From contig OY970208.1 of the NCBI GenBank assembly GCA_963713865.1, positions 1,184,001-1,248,000 on the forward strand: DNA of 64,000 bases, read 5' to 3'. The DNA is from an uncultured candidate division Zixibacteria bacterium (lineage in GTDB: Bacteria; Zixibacteria; MSB-5A5; RBG-16-43-9). This document shows, piece after piece, positions 22,269 through 32,714 of this stretch. The notes under the pieces are model-generated. The model worked only from the letters and a program-made list of their open reading frames with translations. It had not been told where the DNA came from and searched no databases. How positions within the stretch are numbered: the first letter of the stretch is position 1; every line of letters begins with the position of its first letter. Both the position numbers and the translations under genes were made by a program.

Positions 22269-25164
22269 TTACTTTTGAGGGACCTGAAGCTGATATTGTT
22301 TCATCTTGAATCTCAGGCTGGACTCAGGTATTTTCAAAGCTTGAGCGGCAAATTTTTTCACCCAGTTATTTTCGATCAAGGCCTTAAGAAGATACTGTTT
22401 CTCTAATAAGGAGAGCCTCTCATATAAAGATAGACTCTCTTTTTTGAATTCTTTGGGCAGAGGGAACTTATCCGATAGTAGCTCTTCCAACTTGAATTCG
22501 TCGCTCTGGCTGTAAGCTAAAATACGCTTGGTCTCATTTTCTAACTCCCGTACATTCCCGGGCCAATCATATTCAGAACAGAGCTCCAGGATTAAAGGTT
22601 TTAAAGAGAACGCCTTCTGGTCTCCTTTAGAATGGGTTTTTATGAAATAGTCAACTAAAAGAGGTATATCTTCTCTTCTTTCCTTTAAAGGGAGAAGCTT
22701 GAGATTAACTGCATTCAATCTAAAATAAAGGTCCTTGCGGAAGCGGCCTTGTGCGACTTCTTCTTCTAAATTCTTATTGGTGGAAGCGACAATCCGGATG
22801 TCGATCTTCTTGGGTTTGGTCTCTCCTAAGCGGGTGATAACCTTCTCCTCCAGTACTCTAAGTAGTTTTACCTGAATAGATGGGCTTAAATCTCCGATCT
22901 CGTCTAAATAAAGAGTTCCTCCATCCGCTTCCTCGAAAAGCCCCTTTTTGTCAAAGGTGGCACCGGTATAGGAACCTTTCTTATGCCCGAAGAGTTCGGA
23001 TTCTAACAAAGGCTCAGGCAGAGCCGCACAGTTAACAGCCACAAAATTCTTATCTTTACGGTTGCTGGAATAATGCAATGCCTTAGCCAAGAAGTCTTTA
23101 CCTGTTCCGGTCTCCCCTTCGAAAAGGACCGAGAGATTAGTATCCTTGATCTGCTCCAGCTTCCACAAGATCTTGAGCATCTGACTGTTGCGGGTGATGA
23201 TCTGGGAGAAGGAGCATCTTTCTTCCAAAAGCTTTCTTAACCTTAAATTATCTTCCTGCAGATTTCTCTTCTGAAGCTCAGAGAGTTTCAAAGCTAACAG
23301 ATCCGAAAAGGCTACTGCGAAATTCAGCTCTTTCTGGGTGAAGGATGAAATATCATTAACCCGGTCAAGATAGATGAAGCCGCAGACCTCCTCTCCGGTT
23401 AAAAGAGGTATGAGCAGGAGAGAGTTTATCTTCCCATTTTCTAAAACCTTCTGAACAGATGTGGGGTGAGTAAAGATCAAAGGCTTAAAGAGATTATCCT
23501 TAGTATCAGCAGAGGAGAGATTAAAGGAATTAGAAGGGACTAAACTCTTAGCCAGATTCCTGGCTTTGTCTGGCTCGATGTTATAGAGTGAAGGGCAAGA
23601 AGGCTCTTCTGCTACTCCGTTTCTATAAACTATAAAACCTCTTTCAGCCTGAATCTTAGAAGCCAAAACTATTAATCTTTCTTCCAGAACTTCCTTCCTG
23701 TATATCCTGATATTCAGTATCAGAGAAGTACTTCCTGAAAAGCTTGAATTCGTTTTCCGAGGAAAGGCTTTTCAGGCTTAAACTCTTTTCTATTTCATCC
23801 CGCAAATCACTGCAAAGGGAAAGATTCTCCTTTTCTTCAAGTTCTTCAAATATTTTTTCAGCTTTATTCAGAGAATAGAGAGAGTTTTCAAAATTTTCCT
23901 GTTCAAGTTCAAGTTTAGCATGAGTAAACTCAGTTAATCCTTCAAGATATCTCAAATTCAATTCAGCGGAAAGCTTCTTCGCCTTTCCCAAACAATTCAG
24001 TTTTTCCGGATAATCGAAACCCTGGTTACGAGATAAGGAGATATATACCTTGATCTGCTCATATTTAGCATCGATTTCCTCTAAGAGGCTAACCCCTTTC
24101 TCAAAGGCTTCTCTGGCTTTATCCTTTTCATTTTTCAGGCTGTAGATTTCGCCGGAGATCTTATAAGCCAATCCCTCCTCTAATTTTTCACCCAAGGCTT
24201 TAGAAACTTTTAAGGATTTCTCAACATCCTCTGAGGCTTTTTCTAATTCATTTCCCCTTAGCTCTAACTCGGCTAAAAGCCTGTAGCTCTGGCTGATAAT
24301 GCCACCTTCTGGTGCTATCTTTTCTCCGATTTTAATAGCATTCAGATAACAGGATTTAGCCTCCTCTAACTTTTTCTGTTGAAAATATAGTTCCCCTTGA
24401 TACTCGTAATAGATGGCTAAATCTCTTAAGGATTCGTTTCTGCTAAGAAGCTGAAAAGCTCGGAGAAAATAGGAAGAGGCTTTTTTAAACTCTCTTTTTA
24501 AAATCTTAAGATAACCTAGGGAGAGGAGGCAACGAGATAAATTAATTTTCTGGCCAGCATTCTTAGTTTCCTTTATGTTGGATAAAAGATGCTTTTCAGC
24601 TAAGTCCAGTTCACCGCTCAGGGTGTAAATTCTACCCAAGTTTCTCTGGAATATACCGAGGGTTACCCAATCCCGGCTTTTTTCTAAATAGGAGATGCAT
24701 TCCTTAAGGTATTCTACAGCCTGCACATAATCCGAACGGATGAAACAGATCTGGGCAAGTTTGTTATAGCTCTGGACAATCCCTCTCTCCTCGTCTATCC
24801 TTCTACAAGTGGCAATTGAATCCCTGAACTCATTTTCTGCCTGTTTCAATCTCCCTGAAGCAAGATAAGATTTGCCCAGGATTGATTGTACCTGGGCAAT
24901 CCTTTTGTTCTCTATGGTGTTCCTGAAGAGTTCAAAAGATTTTTTACCGCTCTCCAGCGATTCGTCGTATCTGCCCAGACCGTATAATGCCACTGCGGAA
25001 AGATAATAGAATACCCCCATATCCAAAGAGCTGGTATTTAAACCTCCTTGGGTTTCAACCTCCTTGAGCTGTTGCCCGGCCTCCTTGAATTTATCTTTTT
25101 CTAAGAGGTGTTCAATCTGCTCAAGTCTTTCCTTAATTGATAAACCTTCTAATTTCTCCTTCAT
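22269..25164 (-). CDS. TPR-GAF-sigma54 AAA+-HTH transcriptional activator; frameshifted (+1) at about 23687
   Basis: About 490 aa of TPRs, GAF-like LIPLLTGEEVCGFIYLD, GETGTGKD, ESELFGH..GSYTGA, LDEIG, WPGNVREL, Fis-like HTH; removing one base in CCAGAAC (23684-23690) gives 964 aa. Confidence 0.88.
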
Positions 25165-25764: not shown

Positions 25765-26214
25765 CTACATCCCAGTTACTCTCAAGTTATATATTTTCCA
25801 CTTTCCATCTTTGAAGTAAAGACCCATGTTAGTATAATTCTTAATCCCGGTTATTTTGCTGACATAGGTAACTTCAACTGCGGCTGAATCCCTTTTAACT
25901 TTTGATTTCCCTATTACTACCAAACTGTTTTTCCAGCTCATCCGGGTAGATCCATCTCCGGTTAAATCTCTCAAAATTTCCTGTCTGATGTTAGGATAAA
26001 GTTCCTCCTTCTCTTTTACCGAAAAACCTTTCAGATTTTCACCTGCAATGTACTCCAAATCCAGATATTCCTTTAAAGCGGTGGTATCAGATTGATCCAC
26101 TGCGGTCATAAGTTTTTTTACCTCTTCCCTGGGATCAGGTTTATTAGAGCAGGAAGTCAAGGAGATTATAAAAAGTAAAAGGGATAAACCGATCATTTGA
26201 AAAAGCCTTTTCAT
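25765..26214 (-). CDS. Lipoprotein, NTF2-like/DUF4878-like
   Basis: LTSC lipobox; C-terminal KDGKWKI. Confidence 0.7.
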   Translation of the reverse strand: MKRLFQMIGLSLLLFIISLTSCSNKPDPREEVKKLMTAVDQSDTTALKEYLDLEYIAGENLKGFSVKEKEELYPNIRQEILRDLTGDGSTRMSWKNSLVVIGKSKVKRDSAAVEVTYVSKITGIKNYTNMGLYFKDGKWKIYNLRVTGM

Positions 26215-26679
26215 CTTTTCCTCACTTTCTTTTTGGCTGCCAATTTTTTAGGCTTAAACTTTTTAATTGAATCAAACAACTTGTTTTCTTCAGAAGAAAA
26301 TATCACTCAAACTTAAAGGTCTGTCAATACCTATTTATAGAATATTTTTGTTTAAAAGGTATCAGGGGCAGGCACAGGGGCCTGCCCCTACCTCTTTCTG
26401 TCATTCTGAAGGAATCCCACCAAAAGCTGGCGACTGAAGAATCTACTTCAAAGCAAAATTCAATAGATTCTTCGATTGACAAGGCGTGATCAGAATAACA
26501 GTAGAAGTAAGGTTATAGTTAAACGTTCCTACAAAACATCTTCAAATCATAAGGGTTAATATAGGGTTTGCTCCTGCATAATTCTGCAATATTAAAGGTT
26601 AATTCTGGTTGACAACTTCAGGATTTGTTACTTACTTTAGCAAAAGGCTTTTTGAAAGAAGGCGGAGGAGATAAAACGA

Positions 26680-27336
26680 ATGGAAAAAGAACTTAAAGTT
26701 TTTATGCAAAGATGTTACAATTCGGTCCTGGAGGGGAATAAAGAGGAGGTTATAAAGTTATCCAGAGAAGCTATTAAATTAAAATACGACCCCTATCTTG
26801 TAGTTGAGAAAGGTCTGGTCGAAGGCATTAAGAAGTTAGGAAAAGAATGGGAGCAGGGGAGTTGTTTTCTACCTGAACTGGTCTTAGGAGCAGAGGCGGT
26901 AAAGGCTGGTATCTCAATTCTACAAAAACAGATTTTAAAAGTAAAGGCTGAAAAGAAAAGATTGCCCCGGCTGATAATCGGCACCATCGAAGGGGATATA
27001 CATGATATCGGAAAGATGTTGGTTGCCACTATGCTCTCAGCCAACGGGTTTGAGGTGATCGATTTAGGCGTGGATGTCAAAGCTGAGGTTTTTGTCAAAT
27101 CTGCAAAAAGGTACGAGCCGAAATTCCTCTGTATTTCGTCTTTACTTACTACTACTATGCAGAATGAGATTCAGGTCATGGAGGGATTAAAAAAAGCTAA
27201 TCTAAGAAAAAAGATCAAAGTTATGGTGGGTGGGGCACCAGCCAGCCAGGGCTGGGCAAAAGAGATCGGAGCAGATTTCTACGGGGAGAATGCTATTTCA
27301 GCAGTAAAAATTGCTCGAAAAGAGATGAGCGAATGA
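26680..27336 (+). CDS. Corrinoid (B12-binding) methyltransferase protein, MttC/MtbC-like
   Basis: Cap domain FLPEL; GDIHDIGK (DxHxxG); SSLLTTTM; VGGAP. Confidence 0.92.
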   Translation: MEKELKVFMQRCYNSVLEGNKEEVIKLSREAIKLKYDPYLVVEKGLVEGIKKLGKEWEQGSCFLPELVLGAEAVKAGISILQKQILKVKAEKKRLPRLIIGTIEGDIHDIGKMLVATMLSANGFEVIDLGVDVKAEVFVKSAKRYEPKFLCISSLLTTTMQNEIQVMEGLKKANLRKKIKVMVGGAPASQGWAKEIGADFYGENAISAVKIARKEMSE

Positions 27337-28244
27337 AAGGAACGCAAGGTAAAAAATCTATATTAGAATTGGGCAGGGAAAAGGTGGTTTTATTGGATGG
27401 GGCAATGGGAACGATGCTTTTCTCTGCGGGTCTGCCCTACAATAAACCGCCTGAACTGTGGAACCTTTCACATCCAGAAATAATTTTAAAGATTCACCAG
27501 AGATATATCCGGGCAGGTGTAGATATAATCCAGACCAATACTTTCGGAGCAAGCAGCCTGAAGTTAAAAAAATCAGGAAATGAAAAGAAGGTGGGGAAAA
27601 TCAATCTATCTGCAGTGAGGATTGCAAATGAAGCCTGTCCGGTTGACAAGTATGTTGCCGGGAATATCGGACCCAGCGGTGAATTTTTTGAGCCTTTAGG
27701 TAAGGCAAAATTTAGAGAGCTAAAAAAAGTTTTTTCCAGACAGGCTGAACTGCTTTTGGGAGGTGGAGTTGACCTTTTTTCTATTGAGACGATGTTTGAT
27801 TTAAGAGAAGCCTTATCCGCAGTTGAAGGAGTTAGGGAAGTATCTTCACTTCCCCTTTTCATCTGTATGACCTTTGAAAAAAAAATCAAGGGGTATTTTA
27901 CGCTGATGGGGGATGAGGTTTCATTCTCTTTGAAAAAGCTCGAAGAGGCAGGTGCGGATGTGGTTGGGGCTAACTGTACCCTGGGTAGTGCAGAGATGAT
28001 AGGATTGATCCCGGTAATGAAGAAAAGCACAAATCTACCGCTAATAGTTCAGCCAAATGCTGGAAAACCGGTGATTCGCAAAGGGAAAACGGTTTATCTT
28101 CAAAAACCAGATTCTTTTGCTAAGGATATATTTAGGATGATAAAGTCAGGGGTTAATTTTGCAGGAGGGTGCTGTGGCACTACCCCGGAATTTATTAGAA
28201 AGATTAAGGAAGGTTTGGAAAACTGTGAAAGACGGAAGTGCTGA
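27333..28244 (+). CDS. Homocysteine S-methyltransferase domain (stand-alone MetH N-terminal module)
   Basis: LLDGAMGT, TNTFGA, ETMFD, GANC, PNAG, GGCCGTTP (Zn ligands). Confidence 0.92.
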   Translation: MKGTQGKKSILELGREKVVLLDGAMGTMLFSAGLPYNKPPELWNLSHPEIILKIHQRYIRAGVDIIQTNTFGASSLKLKKSGNEKKVGKINLSAVRIANEACPVDKYVAGNIGPSGEFFEPLGKAKFRELKKVFSRQAELLLGGGVDLFSIETMFDLREALSAVEGVREVSSLPLFICMTFEKKIKGYFTLMGDEVSFSLKKLEEAGADVVGANCTLGSAEMIGLIPVMKKSTNLPLIVQPNAGKPVIRKGKTVYLQKPDSFAKDIFRMIKSGVNFAGGCCGTTPEFIRKIKEGLENCERRKC

Positions 28245-28256
28245 GTAGTAAAGGGT

Positions 28257-28284
28257 GTAGAGACGCATTGCTATGCGTTTCTAC
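28257..28284. repeat. GTAG-headed REP-like palindrome
   Basis: GTAGAGACGCATTGCTATGCGTTTCTAC; related copy at 31239-31263. Confidence 0.75.
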
Positions 28285-28451
28285 GAAAGAATAATCGCGT
28301 AAGGGTGGGTGAAGAGCTGGTTGAGCGAAGCGAAATCCCGCTTTAGCGGGATCTCCACCCTTCACCCTTGTCAGGTCGGGGGACCTGACAAACACTGAGT
28401 ATTTTTTAATGATTAAAGCTAAAGCTTTACACTCCAGTTTGAAGATAAAAT

Positions 28452-29090
28452 ATGTTTGAGATAATTGAGAATTTCAAGGTAACAGTTGATCATAAGGAAA
28501 TATTAAGGCTTTTAGGGCATACCCCAGAAGATAAAAAGATAAAAGATAGCTCAAGGAAATTGATTGTGGAGATGATAGAGCTTTCTTTTGAGCTGACTAA
28601 ACCTAAAGGGATTTATACTGTCAAAGATATAAAAGAATTGCCAGAAGAATGCTCTTTTAACTCAGGTGAAAAAGTTGCATTCGGAATATCTACTATCAGT
28701 GAGAAGTTAGAGAAAAAGGTTAAGAGTTTAAGTTCTAAGGGTGAACAAACCAGAGCGGTTATTTTGGATGCCATTGGTTCTGTGGCGGCTGAATATACAG
28801 CAGAATATCTGAATCAGATTATCATAGATAAAGCTGAAGAAGATAATCTATATCATAGCCCCAGGTTCAGTCCGGGATATGGAGGATGGAAGTTAGAAGG
28901 GCAGAGACTTATCTTCAATTTATTACCAGCAGAAAAGATCAGAGTGAGTTTAAATCAATTTTATATGATGGTACCTAAAAAATCGGTCTCCTTTGCAGTT
29001 AATTTGAGCAGAAATCGTTTTAAAGGGAAAAACCTGTCACCCTGCGAAATCTGTGGATTAAAAGAGTGCCATTTTAAAAAAGAAAAATGA
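28452..29090 (+). CDS. Stand-alone MetH reactivation (AdoMet-binding) domain
   Basis: LDAIGSVAAE, RFSPGYG, MMVPKKSVS, C-terminal CxxCxxxxC. Confidence 0.85.
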   Translation: MFEIIENFKVTVDHKEILRLLGHTPEDKKIKDSSRKLIVEMIELSFELTKPKGIYTVKDIKELPEECSFNSGEKVAFGISTISEKLEKKVKSLSSKGEQTRAVILDAIGSVAAEYTAEYLNQIIIDKAEEDNLYHSPRFSPGYGGWKLEGQRLIFNLLPAEKIRVSLNQFYMMVPKKSVSFAVNLSRNRFKGKNLSPCEICGLKECHFKKEK

Positions 29091-29100
29091 AGGAGGGAAC

Positions 29101-30579
29101 TTGAGGATATTCAGGCGTCCTGAATTAGAACTCTTAGATAAGAAAAGGGTTGAGCATATTATAGATGAAGCTTTGGAGCTGCTTTTAAAGGTTGGAGTTT
29201 TTGTGGAGAACAAAGAAGGGCTTGCTCTTTTGGGTGATGCTGGAACAGGGATAGATAAGAAGAAGAAAAGAGCCTATCTTAAAAAAGAGTTGGTTGAAAG
29301 ATGTCTTAAAACTTGTCCAAAGGTAATTGAGGTTTATGACCGTGAAGAGAGGTTAGCTCTAAATCTAAAAGAAGATAAAGTCCATTTCAATCCCGGCTCT
29401 GCGGCTCTTTGGATTTATGACTTAAAAAAAGATGTGATCAGAGAACCAGTAACTTCTGATCTGATTAAATTTGCCCAGCTGGTGGATGGGTTGGATTACC
29501 TGAAAGCCCAGAGCACTGCTTTAATCCCTTCGGATGTGCCCAAGAAAATGGCAGATCGGTATCGGCTTTTCATTTCACTTTTATTTTCAGTTAAGCCAGT
29601 TATCACCGGGACATTTGAGAAAGATGCTTTTAAGATTATGAAAGATATGCTGGTTTGTATTAGAGGTGGCGAGGGTAATTTAAGAAAAAAGCCCTTAGCC
29701 ATTTTCGACTGTTGTCCATCGCCCCCTTTGAAATGGAGCGATTTAACCTGCCAGAACTTGATCGATTGTGCGAAAAGCGGGATCCCGGCTGAGCTGGTCT
29801 CTATGCCTTTAAGCGGGGCAACTGCACCGATTACCTTAGTTGGAAGCTTAGTTCAGCATACGGCGGAGAATCTAAGCGGGATCGTTATCCATCAACTTAC
29901 TCGCAGAGGTTCGCCGATTATCTACGGTGGCTCACCCTCCGGTTTTGATATGAGGACCGGGACAACTCCCATGGGGGCAATCGAGACTATGATGATAGAT
30001 TCAGCTTTTAACCAGATCGGGAAGTATTTTGGACTCCCCACCCATGCCTATATGGGGCTTAGCGACTCCAAGACAATGGATTATCAAGCCGGTTTAGAAT
30101 CAGGGATCGGTGCGATTTTAGCTGCCTTATCCGGGATAAATGTTGTTTCCGGACCAGGTATGCTCGATTTTGAAAGTTGCCAGAGTTTAGAGAAGCTGGT
30201 TATAGATAACGAGATCTGCGGGATGGCATATCGATTGATTGAGGGGATTAATTTTAAAGATAAAACTCCTTCTTTAGACCTGTTCAAGGAGGAGTTTTTA
30301 GAAAAAGGGTTTTTGACCTCTCCTTATACTCTTAAATGGTTTAAAAAGGAGTTTTTCTTTCCCAGCCAGGTGATAGACCGGTCAAATTTAGGTGAATGGA
30401 TCAAGAAAGGTAAAAAGAGCGCGATCTGGAAAGCCAGGGAACTGGTTGAGAAAATAGTTTCTCTTAAAAGCTTTAACCAGGTTCCGGTAGAAAAAAAGAA
30501 AGAGCTTCAGAAGATTATCCTGATGGATGCGAAGAACTATGAATTTGATCAGGAGTTGAAGAAGAGGTTTAAGAATTGA
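29101..30579 (+). CDS. Trimethylamine methyltransferase (MttB) family protein, non-pyrrolysine
   Basis: SPPLKW, GATAPITL, DMRTG, GLSDSK...QAGLES, GPGML; no in-frame TAG. Confidence 0.9.
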   Translation: MRIFRRPELELLDKKRVEHIIDEALELLLKVGVFVENKEGLALLGDAGTGIDKKKKRAYLKKELVERCLKTCPKVIEVYDREERLALNLKEDKVHFNPGSAALWIYDLKKDVIREPVTSDLIKFAQLVDGLDYLKAQSTALIPSDVPKKMADRYRLFISLLFSVKPVITGTFEKDAFKIMKDMLVCIRGGEGNLRKKPLAIFDCCPSPPLKWSDLTCQNLIDCAKSGIPAELVSMPLSGATAPITLVGSLVQHTAENLSGIVIHQLTRRGSPIIYGGSPSGFDMRTGTTPMGAIETMMIDSAFNQIGKYFGLPTHAYMGLSDSKTMDYQAGLESGIGAILAALSGINVVSGPGMLDFESCQSLEKLVIDNEICGMAYRLIEGINFKDKTPSLDLFKEEFLEKGFLTSPYTLKWFKKEFFFPSQVIDRSNLGEWIKKGKKSAIWKARELVEKIVSLKSFNQVPVEKKKELQKIILMDAKNYEFDQELKKRFKN

Positions 30580-30795
30580 TAATAAATGTCATTTTGAGCG
30601 AAGCGAAAAATCTAAGGCTAAAAGGAAGAAGACTCTTTGCCCATTTTTCCCAGAATGACAGAATGAAACAGAAGTATCCAACTTTGACGGACTGTACCTT
30701 TACAATTTCAGTATAATTCTTTACTATTTTACTAAGAAAATTCAAGTTTTCCCTGATTTTGCCGATAAAAACAATAGAACTTTCAAGATTTTTAC

Positions 30796-30823
30796 TTGAC
30801 AAAACCGGTTTTTTACGTATATT
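30796..30823 (+). promoter_or_regulatory. Sigma70-type promoter for the csp gene
   Basis: TTGACA-N16-TATATT, followed by a long leader with hairpin ACCATGAGAG...CTTTCATGGT and a T-run. Confidence 0.55.
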
Positions 30824-30971
30824 GATATTGTAAGGGATTAGAAGGAAAGAGTTAGTTGATTTTAAAATACCTTAAAAGATTTTAATTGACCATGAGAGTT
30901 TTTAGTTTTGTAGTATCTTTCATGGTTTTTTTGTTTTAACGTCAGGTTAGTGAAAGGTGGTGAATAAGATT

Positions 30972-31175
30972 TTGGCAGAAGGGAAAGTGAAGTGGTTCAA
31001 CGAGGCTAAGGGATTTGGATTTATCGAGCCCAAGGAAGGGGGGAAGGATGTCTTTGTGCATTATTCCGCGATAAAGTCGGAGGGATATAAGTCCCTGAAA
31101 GAGGGAGACGAGGTTAGCTTCGATACTACCGAGGGTCCTAAAGGACCGCAGGCAATTAATGTAGTTAAATTATAA
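30972..31175 (+). CDS. Cold-shock protein (probable TTG start at 30972)
   Basis: GKVKWFN, KGFGFI (RNP1), DVFVHYS (RNP2). Confidence 0.95.
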
Positions 31176-31197
31176 TATAAGATTTAACCGCATTATC

Positions 31198-31230
31198 AAC
31201 CCTCCCGTATAAAAGCGGGAGGGTTTTTTA
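31198..31230 (+). terminator. Rho-independent terminator after csp
   Basis: AACCCTCCCG-loop-CGGGAGGGTT followed by T-run. Confidence 0.85.
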
Positions 31231-31457
31231 TTTTATTTGTAGAGACGCATAGAATGCGTCTCTTTATTATTCCCCTCCTTTTCAAGGAGAGGGTCAGGGT
31301 GAGGTCATAGTACTAAAAAAGGAACAGACAAGATGTCTGTTATACCATTTTTTGTGACCCTGAAAGGGTCACACTACGAAATGCTACCAGGAGTGCATCA
31401 GCTTGTCGAGATTGACCTTGAGGCTGATGCAAACAAAAGCAAGCTTTTGCACTCCAA

Positions 31458-32714
31458 CTAAAACAATCCCAACTGCTCGGTATCTTTTTTTACTTCTACT
31501 TTCTCTCTTTCTTCAAATATTTTTATCTTACCATAGACTCCGTCGTGGCCCGGAATTATAGTCAAATTTCTCTCACTTACTCTTTTGATACCTTCAAGTA
31601 TTTTAGGTGGTGTTTCTAAAGATAATTCCTCCAGCGAAAGGTCAAGAAGGATTTTAAACTCATTTCCGAAGTTCTGGATCATTTTTTTATACTCTTCTTC
31701 CACACCTTTGGTATCCGGTGCTTGACCCAGGGCTTCTGCAATTATTTCTTGTAGCGGAATCAAATTTTTGAAGGGTATAGAATTGGGTGGGATAAACCCT
31801 TCGGGTCTATCGGCTAAATCCTCTACCCGGTGCATCACTCCAACTGTGATCCTTTTATGACAGACCGGACAGAGGTATTTATTTTTTTTGGTCTCTGCTG
31901 GCGAGAATAATACCCCGCAGTTTCTATGTCCATCAAAATGGTATTTCCCTTCTTCGGGGAAAAATTCGAGGGTATATAAAAATTTATTTTTATCCTTTGA
32001 TTTTATTGTGTCTACTATCTCCCTATAATCTAACTCGCAGTCAAATAGATTCGCCTCTCTTCCGAGCTTGGATGGTGAATGAGCGTCTGAATTAGAGATT
32101 AATGTAATCTTATCTAACTTTGATAATCTCCAGTTCATCTGCGGATCTGAGGAAAGTCCGGTTTCGATTGAATAAATATATTTAGAATATTCACCAAAGC
32201 ATTCTTCAATTGAATCGAACCCGGAATTTGCTCCGAAGATGGAAAACCAGGGGGTCCAGGCATGAGCCGGAATGATCAAACATTCCTGGGATACTCCCAA
32301 TATGATTTTTAATAAATCCTTAGCCGGGAAGGTGAAAACAGGCCTGCCATCTGAGGACAATTTACCTAAATTTTCCAGTTTTTTATTGATTTTTTCAACT
32401 ATCTCAAAAGACGGGGCGAAAACCAGGGTATGGATTTTTCTCAATCTTCCATTTTGATGAAAGATGTTGTTCAACTCTGCAGTGAGGATGAATCTGACGG
32501 GATATTTTTTATTTTTCAATTGAAAGAGCCCGTTCCCCAGAGGCTCTAACTTCTCTTTCAATTCAGAAAGATAGGACGGATGAGTGAAATCCCCGGTTCC
32601 TAAAAGGGATATTCCCTTTATCTCTGCCCATTTGGACAGGGAGTCAACCTCCATCTCCTGAGAGGTTGCCCGGCTGTATTTGGAATGGATATGAAAATCT
32701 GCGATGAAACGCAT
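31458..32714 (-). CDS. Endonuclease Q family (PHP domain plus Zn finger) DNA repair nuclease
   Basis: ADFHIHSKYS, GTGDFTHP, PAHAWTPW, SNSDAHS, GKYHFDGHRNC...CPVC. Confidence 0.88.
   Translation of the reverse strand: MRFIADFHIHSKYSRATSQEMEVDSLSKWAEIKGISLLGTGDFTHPSYLSELKEKLEPLGNGLFQLKNKKYPVRFILTAELNNIFHQNGRLRKIHTLVFAPSFEIVEKINKKLENLGKLSSDGRPVFTFPAKDLLKIILGVSQECLIIPAHAWTPWFSIFGANSGFDSIEECFGEYSKYIYSIETGLSSDPQMNWRLSKLDKITLISNSDAHSPSKLGREANLFDCELDYREIVDTIKSKDKNKFLYTLEFFPEEGKYHFDGHRNCGVLFSPAETKKNKYLCPVCHKRITVGVMHRVEDLADRPEGFIPPNSIPFKNLIPLQEIIAEALGQAPDTKGVEEEYKKMIQNFGNEFKILLDLSLEELSLETPPKILEGIKRVSERNLTIIPGHDGVYGKIKIFEEREKVEVKKDTEQLGLF

Follow-up and report, generated by a model that had tools for sequence, protein, structure and literature searches.

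The window considered here is a 64,000-nucleotide stretch of DNA from an uncultured bacterium of the candidate division Zixibacteria (assembly GCA_963713865.1, contig OY970208.1, positions 1,184,001 to 1,248,000 of the forward strand); it carries a cassette of four genes encoding a corrinoid protein (CoP), a homocysteine (Hcy)/Zn methyltransferase, a stand-alone activation protein (Act) of the type found in the cobalamin-dependent methionine synthase MetH, and a methyltransferase of the MttB family. As judged from sequence, these four genes probably encode a homocysteine methyltransferase system that depends on cobalamin but not on folate: a methionine synthase in separate parts, with a repair step of the S-adenosylmethionine (SAM) type. 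A more detailed form of this proposal is given an even chance of being correct: the cassette would be a true methionine synthase needing no folate, and the sole one in about a fifth of Zixibacteria (22/121), in which the methyl-folate branch (MTHFR, MetE and MetH) is gone; its donor would be one that no characterized MttB-family enzyme uses, likely non-acidic, and its methylamine-type corrinoid protein would be repaired by a SAM-dependent MetH-type protein with a possibly metal-binding Cx2Cx4C tail instead of by RamA. To our knowledge, the ATP-dependent RamA is used by all characterized methylamine and betaine systems.

From the domain identities, motifs and linkage of the genes and from the absence of a folate module, we infer the chemical steps, the donor and the direction of methyl flow as follows. 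The MttB-family enzyme, a TIM barrel, would take up the methyl group of a small methylated donor, which is probably N-methylated and other than glycine betaine, and pass it to Co(I) of the MttC-like corrinoid protein; the MetH-type Zn enzyme would then transfer it from methyl-Co(III) to homocysteine, yielding methionine and Co(I). Corrinoid oxidized to the Co(II) form would be restored by the TM0269-type activation protein through reductive methylation with SAM, the organism having no RamA-type ATP-dependent activase.

The preliminary description of this DNA had assigned four co-oriented genes to these families, and all four are confirmed at the positions in Table 1 by open reading frames (ORFs) and Pfam matches, the activation gene also by structure. 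The corrinoid protein combines a B12-binding cap with a Rossmann domain and scores 213.2 bits against TIGR02370 (methyltransferase cognate corrinoid protein), below the cut-off of 215.3, and its best solved relative is MttC of Methanosarcina barkeri (chain 7xcn_M, 177.4 bits), with 89.8 bits for the B12 domain of Escherichia coli MetH (1bmt); the residues of its DxHxxG motif (D106, H108, G111) are invariant in 39/39 aligned orthologues. The best solved relative of the Hcy protein is the Hcy domain of Thermotoga maritima MetH (1q7m, 211.2 bits), compared to approximately 75 bits for BHMT and 48 bits for the S-methylmethionine-type enzyme 5dml. Its NC motif (Cys215) and GGCCGT motif each have their counterpart in the alignment to 1q7m; the Zn cysteines (C215, C280, C281) do not vary in 39/39 orthologues, and E152/T153 are likewise invariant among the aligned orthologues.

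The activation protein clears PF02965 narrowly (28.2 bits, cut-off 25), and matches PDB entry 1j6r by sequence with an E-value of 2.6e-8; 1j6r is TM0269, the stand-alone activation protein of T. maritima MetH. The AlphaFold model of the protein has a mean pLDDT of 90.3, and Foldseek places 1j6r first (E 1.2e-13, TMq 0.77, TMt 0.82), followed by 17 chains of MetH reactivation domains. The segment RFSPGYGGW contains the SPGYG motif, presumably SAM-binding as in MetH; S140, P141, G142 and W146 are invariant in 50/50 orthologues, with Y143 present in 90% or more of these 50. The C-terminal tail (window positions 29,045 to 29,090) features a Cx2Cx4C motif (C198, C201, C206), modeled at low confidence (pLDDT of approximately 60), and a CxxCxxxxC pattern falls within the last 45 residues of 70 of the 87 complete orthologues; this tail may be a Zn or Fe-S site, possibly a point of electron entry.

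Membership of the fourth protein in the MttB superfamily is clear, as profile PF06253 covers residues 7–473 at the score given in Table 1 (cut-off 25). The preliminary description had read the Leu of MG-L-SDSK as occupying the position of pyrrolysine, and the HMMER alignment to M. barkeri MttB (7xcl) bears this out, with Leu320 (codon 30,058 to 30,060) opposite the pyrrolysine X in an ORF that has no internal stop. Together with a score of 384 bits against TIGR02369, below the cut-off of 525, this rules out MttB proper, the trimethylamine enzyme. Alignments are near full-length both to 7xcl (192.8 bits) and to MtgB of Desulfitobacterium hafniense (9yce, 183 bits); neither this protein nor the Hcy protein exceeds a curated NCBIfam cut-off. 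Placement relative to the characterized enzymes MtgB, MtcB, MtpB, MtyB and MthB is based on these PDB bit scores and on a statement in Williams et al. 2022.

The substrate pocket of the enzyme differs from that of the glycine betaine enzyme. In the available text of Picking et al. 2026 (PMC13080624), MtgB is described as binding glycine betaine through cation-π contacts with Y97 and F356 and carboxylate contacts with R312 and H348, on the basis of mutagenesis and a ligand-bound structure, and the enzymes for carnitine, proline betaine, butyrobetaine and phosphocholine are stated to share R312. In the HMMER pairwise alignment to 9yce, a comparison of sequence and not of structure in which the chain number is the native number minus 2 (checked on R312, H348 and F356), Y97, R312, H348 and F356 correspond to S100, H315, S350 and E358. 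Among 78 subfamily sequences (the query and 77 of the 80 loci described below, three being omitted for lack of a full-length ORF, set at 430 aa or longer), S100, Y317, L320 and E358 are each conserved in 78/78, S350 in 77/78 and F357 in 74/78; H315 is conserved in 65/78, with Gln in the other 13. The alignments thus indicate a subfamily with its own fixed pocket, which has an acidic residue and no arginine. As the betaine-binding residues of MtgB are replaced by another conserved set, glycine betaine appears unlikely as the donor; a pocket with an invariant Glu and without the carboxylate-binding Arg points to a donor lacking an acidic group, and one without a carboxylate is plausible. The methylated-amine donors of the glycine betaine type that the preliminary description had suggested are not borne out by this Ser/His/Ser/Glu set.

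By marker count, the genome, which consists of one contig of 2.72 Mb, is 94% complete; the pterin module was sought in it beyond the window. The preliminary description had noted no pterin-binding domain in the cluster or the window, and indeed none of the 46 further window ORFs matches PF00809; genome-wide, PF00809 has one match, a 296-aa folP-type ORF that covers the full profile at 303 bits and whose neighbors read as folE-like and ftsH-like from sequence. TIGR02082 (metH), run over the genome, matches the Hcy part twice, the B12 part twice and the activation part, and gives nothing at model positions ~330–630, the pterin part; PF02007 (MtrH) has no match in the genome. As the PF00809, TIGR02082 and MtrH searches are empty in this respect, the absence of a pterin module extends from the window to the genome, and a check for a separate pterin-binding MetH module, proposed with the preliminary description, finds none. 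The genome also has no match to RACo/RamA (RACo_C_ter), and it holds no methylcorrinoid:tetrahydrofolate (THF) methyltransferase and no Wood-Ljungdahl corrinoid protein. The sole cobalamin riboswitch precedes a TonB-dependent receptor gene, which indicates corrinoid uptake by the cell.

This organism does hold a folate route to methionine elsewhere (C1:1912841-1916727), at a locus with two tandem MetE-family ORFs (Table 1), a MetE pair of the split or "core" type. On the 3' side of the pair lies a YitJ-type fusion of an Hcy methyltransferase with MTHFR, which is broken here into two overlapping ORFs (302 and 387 aa). Genome G082, of the same genus, has this fusion unbroken at 619 aa, and the break is therefore probably a consensus error or a recent frameshift. 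Given the split MetE and the MTHFR fusion, the cassette is a second route in this genome and not the sole one. No B12 riboswitch, looked for as an indirect sign of a B12-dependent alternative, was found at the MetE locus. The two-ORF MetE pattern is common to most MetE-positive Zixibacteria.

The strongest support for folate independence comes from the phylum as a whole, surveyed in 121 Zixibacteria genomes that are each at least 90% complete (related genomes are not independent). An MttB orthologue is present in 44 of them, after exclusion from 45 matches at E ≤ 1e-30 of G114, which has only paralogues of 28–31% identity; the distribution is patchy, with a match in 36 of 80 genera. MetH is found in 30/121 genomes, a MetE-family match in 41/121 and MTHFR in 68/121, and AdoHcyase, the source of homocysteine from S-adenosylhomocysteine, is nearly universal (118/121). 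Forty of the 43 MttB loci outside the genome under study were taken for analysis, leaving out G124 (identical to L008) and the fragmentary G123 and G143; the full four-gene set is present at 37 of these, two of the other three being cut by contig ends and the third (G071) having its Hcy gene on another contig. No other gene family occurs in more than four of the 40 loci. All sampled genomes but one have a folP-type ORF of ~290 aa (256–311 bits), which is cut by contig ends in G123, G124 and G148, and the pterin domains of MetH in the phylum score 179–219 bits within ORFs of 830–1293 aa; in the 28 genomes with a verified complete cassette, the one under study and G124 included, folP is the only PF00809 match.

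MTHFR follows the methyl-folate methionine synthases closely, being present in 67 of the 70 genomes that have MetE or MetH (48 of 48 without the cassette, 19 of 22 with it). It is present in none of the 22 genomes that have the cassette without MetE or MetH, and in one of the 29 that have none of the three; the 22 cassette-only genomes are thus without a known enzyme making 5-methyl-THF. In each of these 22, PF02574 matches one gene and no more, which shares a contig with MttB in 20 cases, and all four cassette genes together were verified in 18. With homocysteine made, a single Hcy gene and no MTHFR, folate independence of the cassette is well supported, and the absence of MTHFR argues against an MttB-like barrel that itself binds methyl-folate. 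In a fifth of the sampled Zixibacteria, no methionine synthase route other than the cassette is recognizable.

Conservation of the cassette reaches well beyond this phylum. A survey of synteny, also suggested with the preliminary description, covered the best 80 MttB-orthologue loci (50–95% identity; one genome per species scanned; many loci cut by contig ends), in which neighboring genes were called by tblastn with the four window proteins. The loci are in metagenome-assembled genomes (MAGs) labeled Zixibacteria, Krumholzibacteriota, Eisenbacteria, Aminicenantes/Acidobacteriota, KSB1, Gemmatimonadota, Calditrichia, Electryoneota and others, the nearest public locus (95% identity) being labeled Ca. 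Zixiibacteriota. The corrinoid, Hcy and activation genes all stand beside MttB in 27/80 loci, 23 of which have the gene order of the window; among loci with at least 3 kb on either side of MttB, the full set is present in 21/47. With these loci over many phyla and the 37 of 40 in Zixibacteria, the four genes constitute a conserved cassette. Taken singly, the Hcy gene is beside MttB in 37/80 loci and the activation gene in 48/80; MttB is alone in 13/80. Recurring extra genes, namely RamA, a Sortilin/BNR protein, an isochorismatase and others, are lineage-specific.

The same loci bear on reactivation. RamA is beside MttB in 11/80 loci, together with the activation gene in 2/80 and with the Hcy gene in 1/80. 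Aminicenantes-type loci have either the corrinoid, activation and MttB genes without an Hcy gene, or RamA with the corrinoid and MttB genes, and therefore the activation protein travels with the MttB/corrinoid pair and largely alternates with RamA; the two would be alternative means of repairing the same kind of corrinoid protein. The earlier proposal of a reactivation of the SAM type, rather than the RamA/RACo type, fits both this alternation and the lack of RACo/RamA in the genome.

Several results weigh against the proposed function or limit its reach. Outside Zixibacteria, the pterin module is often present: among 32 genomes of the first set that belong to other phyla and have an Hcy gene at the MttB locus, PF00809 matches something further than folP in 27; the additional match lies within MetH-type ORFs of at least 816 aa in 14 genomes and takes the form of stand-alone ORFs of 268–367 aa only in 13; folP is alone in five (G001, G002, G006, G015, G021). 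In two Gemmatimonadota-type loci, L011 (8495–9289) and L012 (4499–5287), a stand-alone pterin gene of 263–265 aa lies between MttB and the Hcy gene and there is no activation gene, a layout like that of MtgBCDE within the same MttB subfamily. Since a second pterin module is present in most of the non-Zixibacteria genomes, MttB may there be an added input and not a replacement, as in the MtgBCDE system of Ruegeria. The suggestion that MttB replaces the folate module does not hold in general. Moreover, 43 of the 80 MttB loci have no nearby Hcy gene.

The Krumholzibacteriota-type genomes G003–G005, G007–G011, G014 and G016 (loci L014, L015, L018, L024, L025, L029, L030, L033, L041 and L060) combine the full cassette with a stand-alone second pterin ORF of 268–302 aa elsewhere; in at least four of them this ORF shares a contig with a YitJ-like gene at a distance of approximately 40–45 kb. 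In those organisms, this ORF may encode the folate module that a four-part MetH would otherwise lack.

Further objections come from within Zixibacteria. A clean complementarity between the cassette and MetE/MetH was considered and rejected, as both enzymes are missing in 22 of 44 genomes with the cassette and in 29 of 77 without it; the latter 29 show that a lack of MetE and MetH is frequent in the phylum anyway. An orphan PF02574 gene is present in 22 of the 29 genomes lacking the cassette, MetE and MetH, and in 14/14 such loci examined (L136–L149) there is no corrinoid, MttB, activation, RamA or pterin gene within ~6 kb; Hcy methyltransferases of this family therefore do not necessarily act through a corrinoid, and the orphan proteins, six of which are 39–43% identical to the cassette Hcy protein, perhaps use S-methylmethionine or SAM directly. 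In the genome under study, the split MetE and the MTHFR fusion make the cassette dispensable in principle. As to the donor, no BCCT transporter is found in the genome, and no transporter or donor-producing gene is conserved beside the cassette in the 80 loci or in the 40 Zixibacteria loci. A full-text literature search, which left most subscription journals uncovered, found no experimental test of a pterin-free cassette. On balance, the flow of methyl groups from an amine through the corrinoid to homocysteine without folate, as first suggested, is partly supported by the conserved cassette and by the lack of a folate module here, and is weakened in respect of the donors named, for which the pocket alignment offers no support.

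Among the other explanations, the one that comes closest keeps the chemistry and changes the purpose: the cassette would be a demethylase or scavenger for a carbon or nitrogen source, with homocysteine, methionine and the SAM cycle only as a methyl sink. This would agree with the catabolic role of characterized MttB-family systems, as given in the accessible portions of Picking et al. 2026 (PMC13080624) and Mausz et al. 2025 (PMC12478193), with the presence of MetE and MTHFR in the genome and with the patchy occurrence among Zixibacteria genera. It is nevertheless considered unlikely; methionine is a stoichiometric sink of low capacity, the methylcorrinoid:THF methyltransferase or Wood-Ljungdahl corrinoid protein that could pass the methyl group on to oxidation is missing, and in 22 genomes the cassette is the only recognizable methionine synthase. 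Somewhat less probable again is a different substrate class, in which the acceptor thiol is not homocysteine or the donor is not an amine but, for example, a methylated sulfur or oxygen compound. The pocket signature (S100, H/Q315, S350, E358), which differs from both MtgB and MttB, the scores of both proteins below curated NCBIfam cut-offs and the lack of any characterized member of this MttB subfamily leave room for it; the similarity of the Hcy protein to the T. maritima MetH domain (211 bits), with its invariant Zn cysteines and E152/T153, its status as the only PF02574 protein in 22 genomes and the AdoHcyase of nearly all genomes speak for homocysteine.

An ordinary split MetH, with methyl-THF as the donor through a pterin module located elsewhere (like MtgD) or through the MttB-like barrel itself, is very improbable for this organism. 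The second pterin module of 27/32 genomes from other phyla, located inside the cluster in L011 and L012, would suit it, as would the requirement for the pterin protein MtgD in methionine synthesis in Ruegeria, reported in the available text of Mausz et al. 2025 (PMC12478193); the reading is, however, already contradicted here by the lack of such a module in the genome, and in Zixibacteria by folP as the sole PF00809 match of the 28 complete-cassette genomes and by MTHFR in 0/22 of the cassette-only ones. It is scarcely credible that the MttB-type enzyme supplies methyl groups to a corrinoid used in HgcA-dependent mercury methylation, a role suggested for some Zixibacteria with docking as the only basis in the accessible part of PMC12484752, since the genome has no CdhD/HgcA-family match and the genes conserved beside the enzyme encode an Hcy methyltransferase and a MetH activation protein. 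The folate-independent methionine synthase is the preferred explanation.

The copy in the window does not belong to the main Zixibacteria lineage of the cassette. In a FastTree tree of 118 subfamily members, rooted on four distant paralogues, one clade (support 100) unites 38 Zixibacteria with six others, including the Ca. Hatepunaea locus, and its complete loci are nearly all arranged MttB-Act-CoP-Hcy. The window MttB is placed in another clade, also with support 100, together with L007, L094 and L008, which come from its genus and family, and with L010. The neighbors of this clade are an Ignavibacteria-labeled sequence (support 97) and Eisenbacteria (support 86), and the lineages around it have the order CoP-Hcy-Act-MttB. 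The position of the window MttB apart from the main clade suggests lateral acquisition or replacement of the cassette in this Zixibacteria family. The CoP-Hcy-Act-MttB lineage of the family is shared with Eisenbacteria and Krumholzibacteriota.

Within the cassette (Table 1), the corrinoid and Hcy genes overlap by 4 nt and the MttB-family gene begins 11 nt after the activation gene. The Hcy and activation genes are separated by a spacer of REP-like palindromes that is outside the enzyme; parts of it are repeated in the genome by blastn-short (positions 10–40 with ~20 matches, 170–190 with 17), and the two genes are almost contiguous in the close relatives L008 and L010. The palindromes are short and GC-rich, and a similar hairpin lies downstream of the cassette. 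Upstream, on the opposite strand, are a sigma-54 activator and a large TPR protein; a cold-shock gene with a near-consensus promoter and a terminator ends the operon region. Rfam at gathering thresholds finds only a single tRNA in the whole window and no riboswitch or leader before the operon, and a permissive scan of 26,000 to 31,600 gives nothing credible as either; the weak cspA and PyrR matches are due to the cold-shock gene downstream. A sub-threshold PYLIS_3 match (25 bits, gathering score 38) lies directly 3' of the Leu320 codon and is most simply explained as residual coding homology to mttB.

Table 1. Features of the cassette, its surroundings and two related loci of the same genome. 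Coordinates are window positions unless prefixed by C1 (genome contig).
Feature	Coordinates	Strand	Size	Profile matches and remarks
Sigma-54 activator and large TPR protein	22269-25164	-		GAF + AAA + HTH_8 (activator)
Corrinoid (B12-carrying) protein, MttC/MtgC-like	26680-27336	+	218 aa	PF02607 61.5 bits, PF02310 90.1 bits
Homocysteine/Zn methyltransferase, MetH Hcy-module type	27333-28244	+	303 aa	PF02574 S-methyl_trans 225.9 bits
Spacer, REP-like palindromes	28245-28451	no strand	207 nt
Stand-alone MetH activation protein, TM0269 type	28452-29090	+	212 aa	PF02965 Met_synt_B12
Non-pyrrolysine MttB-family methyltransferase	29101-30579	+	492 aa	PF06253 MTTB 259.7 bits
PYLIS_3 match	30060-30157			Rfam, sub-threshold
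Promoter of cold-shock gene	30796-30823			near-consensus
Cold-shock gene	30957-31175		72 aa
Terminator of cold-shock gene	31198-31225
Hairpin similar to the spacer palindromes	31241-31263
Methionine locus, two tandem MetE-family ORFs	C1:1912829-1916802 (L006 4830-8803)		~320 aa	PF01717 113.8, 309.9 bits
Cobalamin riboswitch	C1:1454321-1454506 (L135 522-707)			73.9 bits

If the proposal is correct, methyl groups of methionine and SAM would be drawn straight from an environmental methylated compound through B12, bypassing folate one-carbon metabolism, in many uncultured sediment and soil phyla that include Zixibacteria, Krumholzibacteriota, Eisenbacteria, Electryoneota and Acidobacteriota. To MetH/MetE and the enzymes of the core-MetE type, it would add a third methionine synthase logic; it would couple B12 demand to the turnover of methylated compounds in anoxic habitats, and metabolic reconstructions that score such genomes as methionine auxotrophs would be wrong. 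What the present analysis adds is the genome-wide absence of the pterin module, the lack of MTHFR in the 22 cassette-only Zixibacteria with their single Hcy gene each, the near mutual exclusion of the activation protein and RamA, a conserved pocket of non-betaine type and the Cx2Cx4C tail. These counts sharpen the case for an experiment, in which glycine betaine would be a poor first choice of donor.

Compared to MetH (TIGR02082), the cassette has homologues for three out of that enzyme's four modules, namely Hcy, cobalamin and activation; the pterin module is missing, the modules are separate proteins, and the corrinoid protein is closer to MttC than to MetH (177 versus 90 bits). TM0269 shares its fold, its size, its existence as a separate polypeptide and the SPGYG motif with the activation protein described here; the latter, unlike TM0269 in its setting, adjoins an MttB-type system. 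The protein described here also carries a conserved C-terminal Cx2Cx4C tail. The MtgB/MtgC/MtgA system of D. hafniense (2qne, 9yce) likewise pairs an MttB-family enzyme of the non-pyrrolysine kind, in which Leu takes the place of pyrrolysine, with a cognate corrinoid protein; its four betaine-binding residues are those replaced by Ser, His, Ser and Glu in the cassette enzyme. In the D. hafniense system, the methyl acceptor is THF, reached via a pterin-type methyltransferase.

A connection between an MttB-family enzyme and methionine has been drawn by genetics in Ruegeria, where, according to the available text of Mausz et al. 2025 (PMC12478193), a single corrinoid protein is used for the demethylation of glycine betaine and for the synthesis of methionine alike. 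As described there, the MtgBCDE system of Ruegeria pomeroyi and the split MetH of Phaeobacter inhibens resemble the present cassette in combining a donor enzyme of the MttB family with a stand-alone corrinoid protein in shared use and an Hcy module encoded by itself; in MtgBCDE, however, neither function can do without the pterin-binding MtgD and reactivation is assigned to RamA and DUF1638, whereas this genome has no second PF00809 match and no RACo_C_ter match (DUF1638 was not searched) and carries a MetH-type activation protein instead. Ruegeria MtgB also acts on glycine betaine in that account, and the betaine-binding residues are not kept here. The MesA-D enzymes, of the core MetE type, also make methionine without methyl-folate, with the methyl group probably from corrinoid proteins, as stated in the accessible part of Price et al. 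2021 (PMC7857596); their catalytic family is MetE-like and unrelated to the MetH Hcy module, and MttB is mentioned nowhere in that paper.

The closest precedent is the cluster of Williams et al. 2022 (Environ Microbiol 24:2576; PMC9324843), in which, as far as its available text goes, the same four protein families are described in Ca. Electryoneota and "diverse bacteria" and corrinoid-dependent methionine synthesis with an unnamed methyl donor is offered as a hypothesis only. The cluster and its folate-free reading were thus already published in 2022, and the cassette does not constitute a new kind. Locus L079 corresponds to their Ca. Hatepunaea contig; its MttB is 52% identical to that of the window and falls into the same subfamily tree, which places the window cassette among these four-gene clusters. 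The two differ in gene order, MttB-Act-CoP-Hcy in the Williams cluster and in most Zixibacteria versus CoP-Hcy-Act-MttB here, and in genomic background, as the MAGs of Williams et al. are reported in the same text to encode a full MetH as well, whereas the genome of the present window encodes none.

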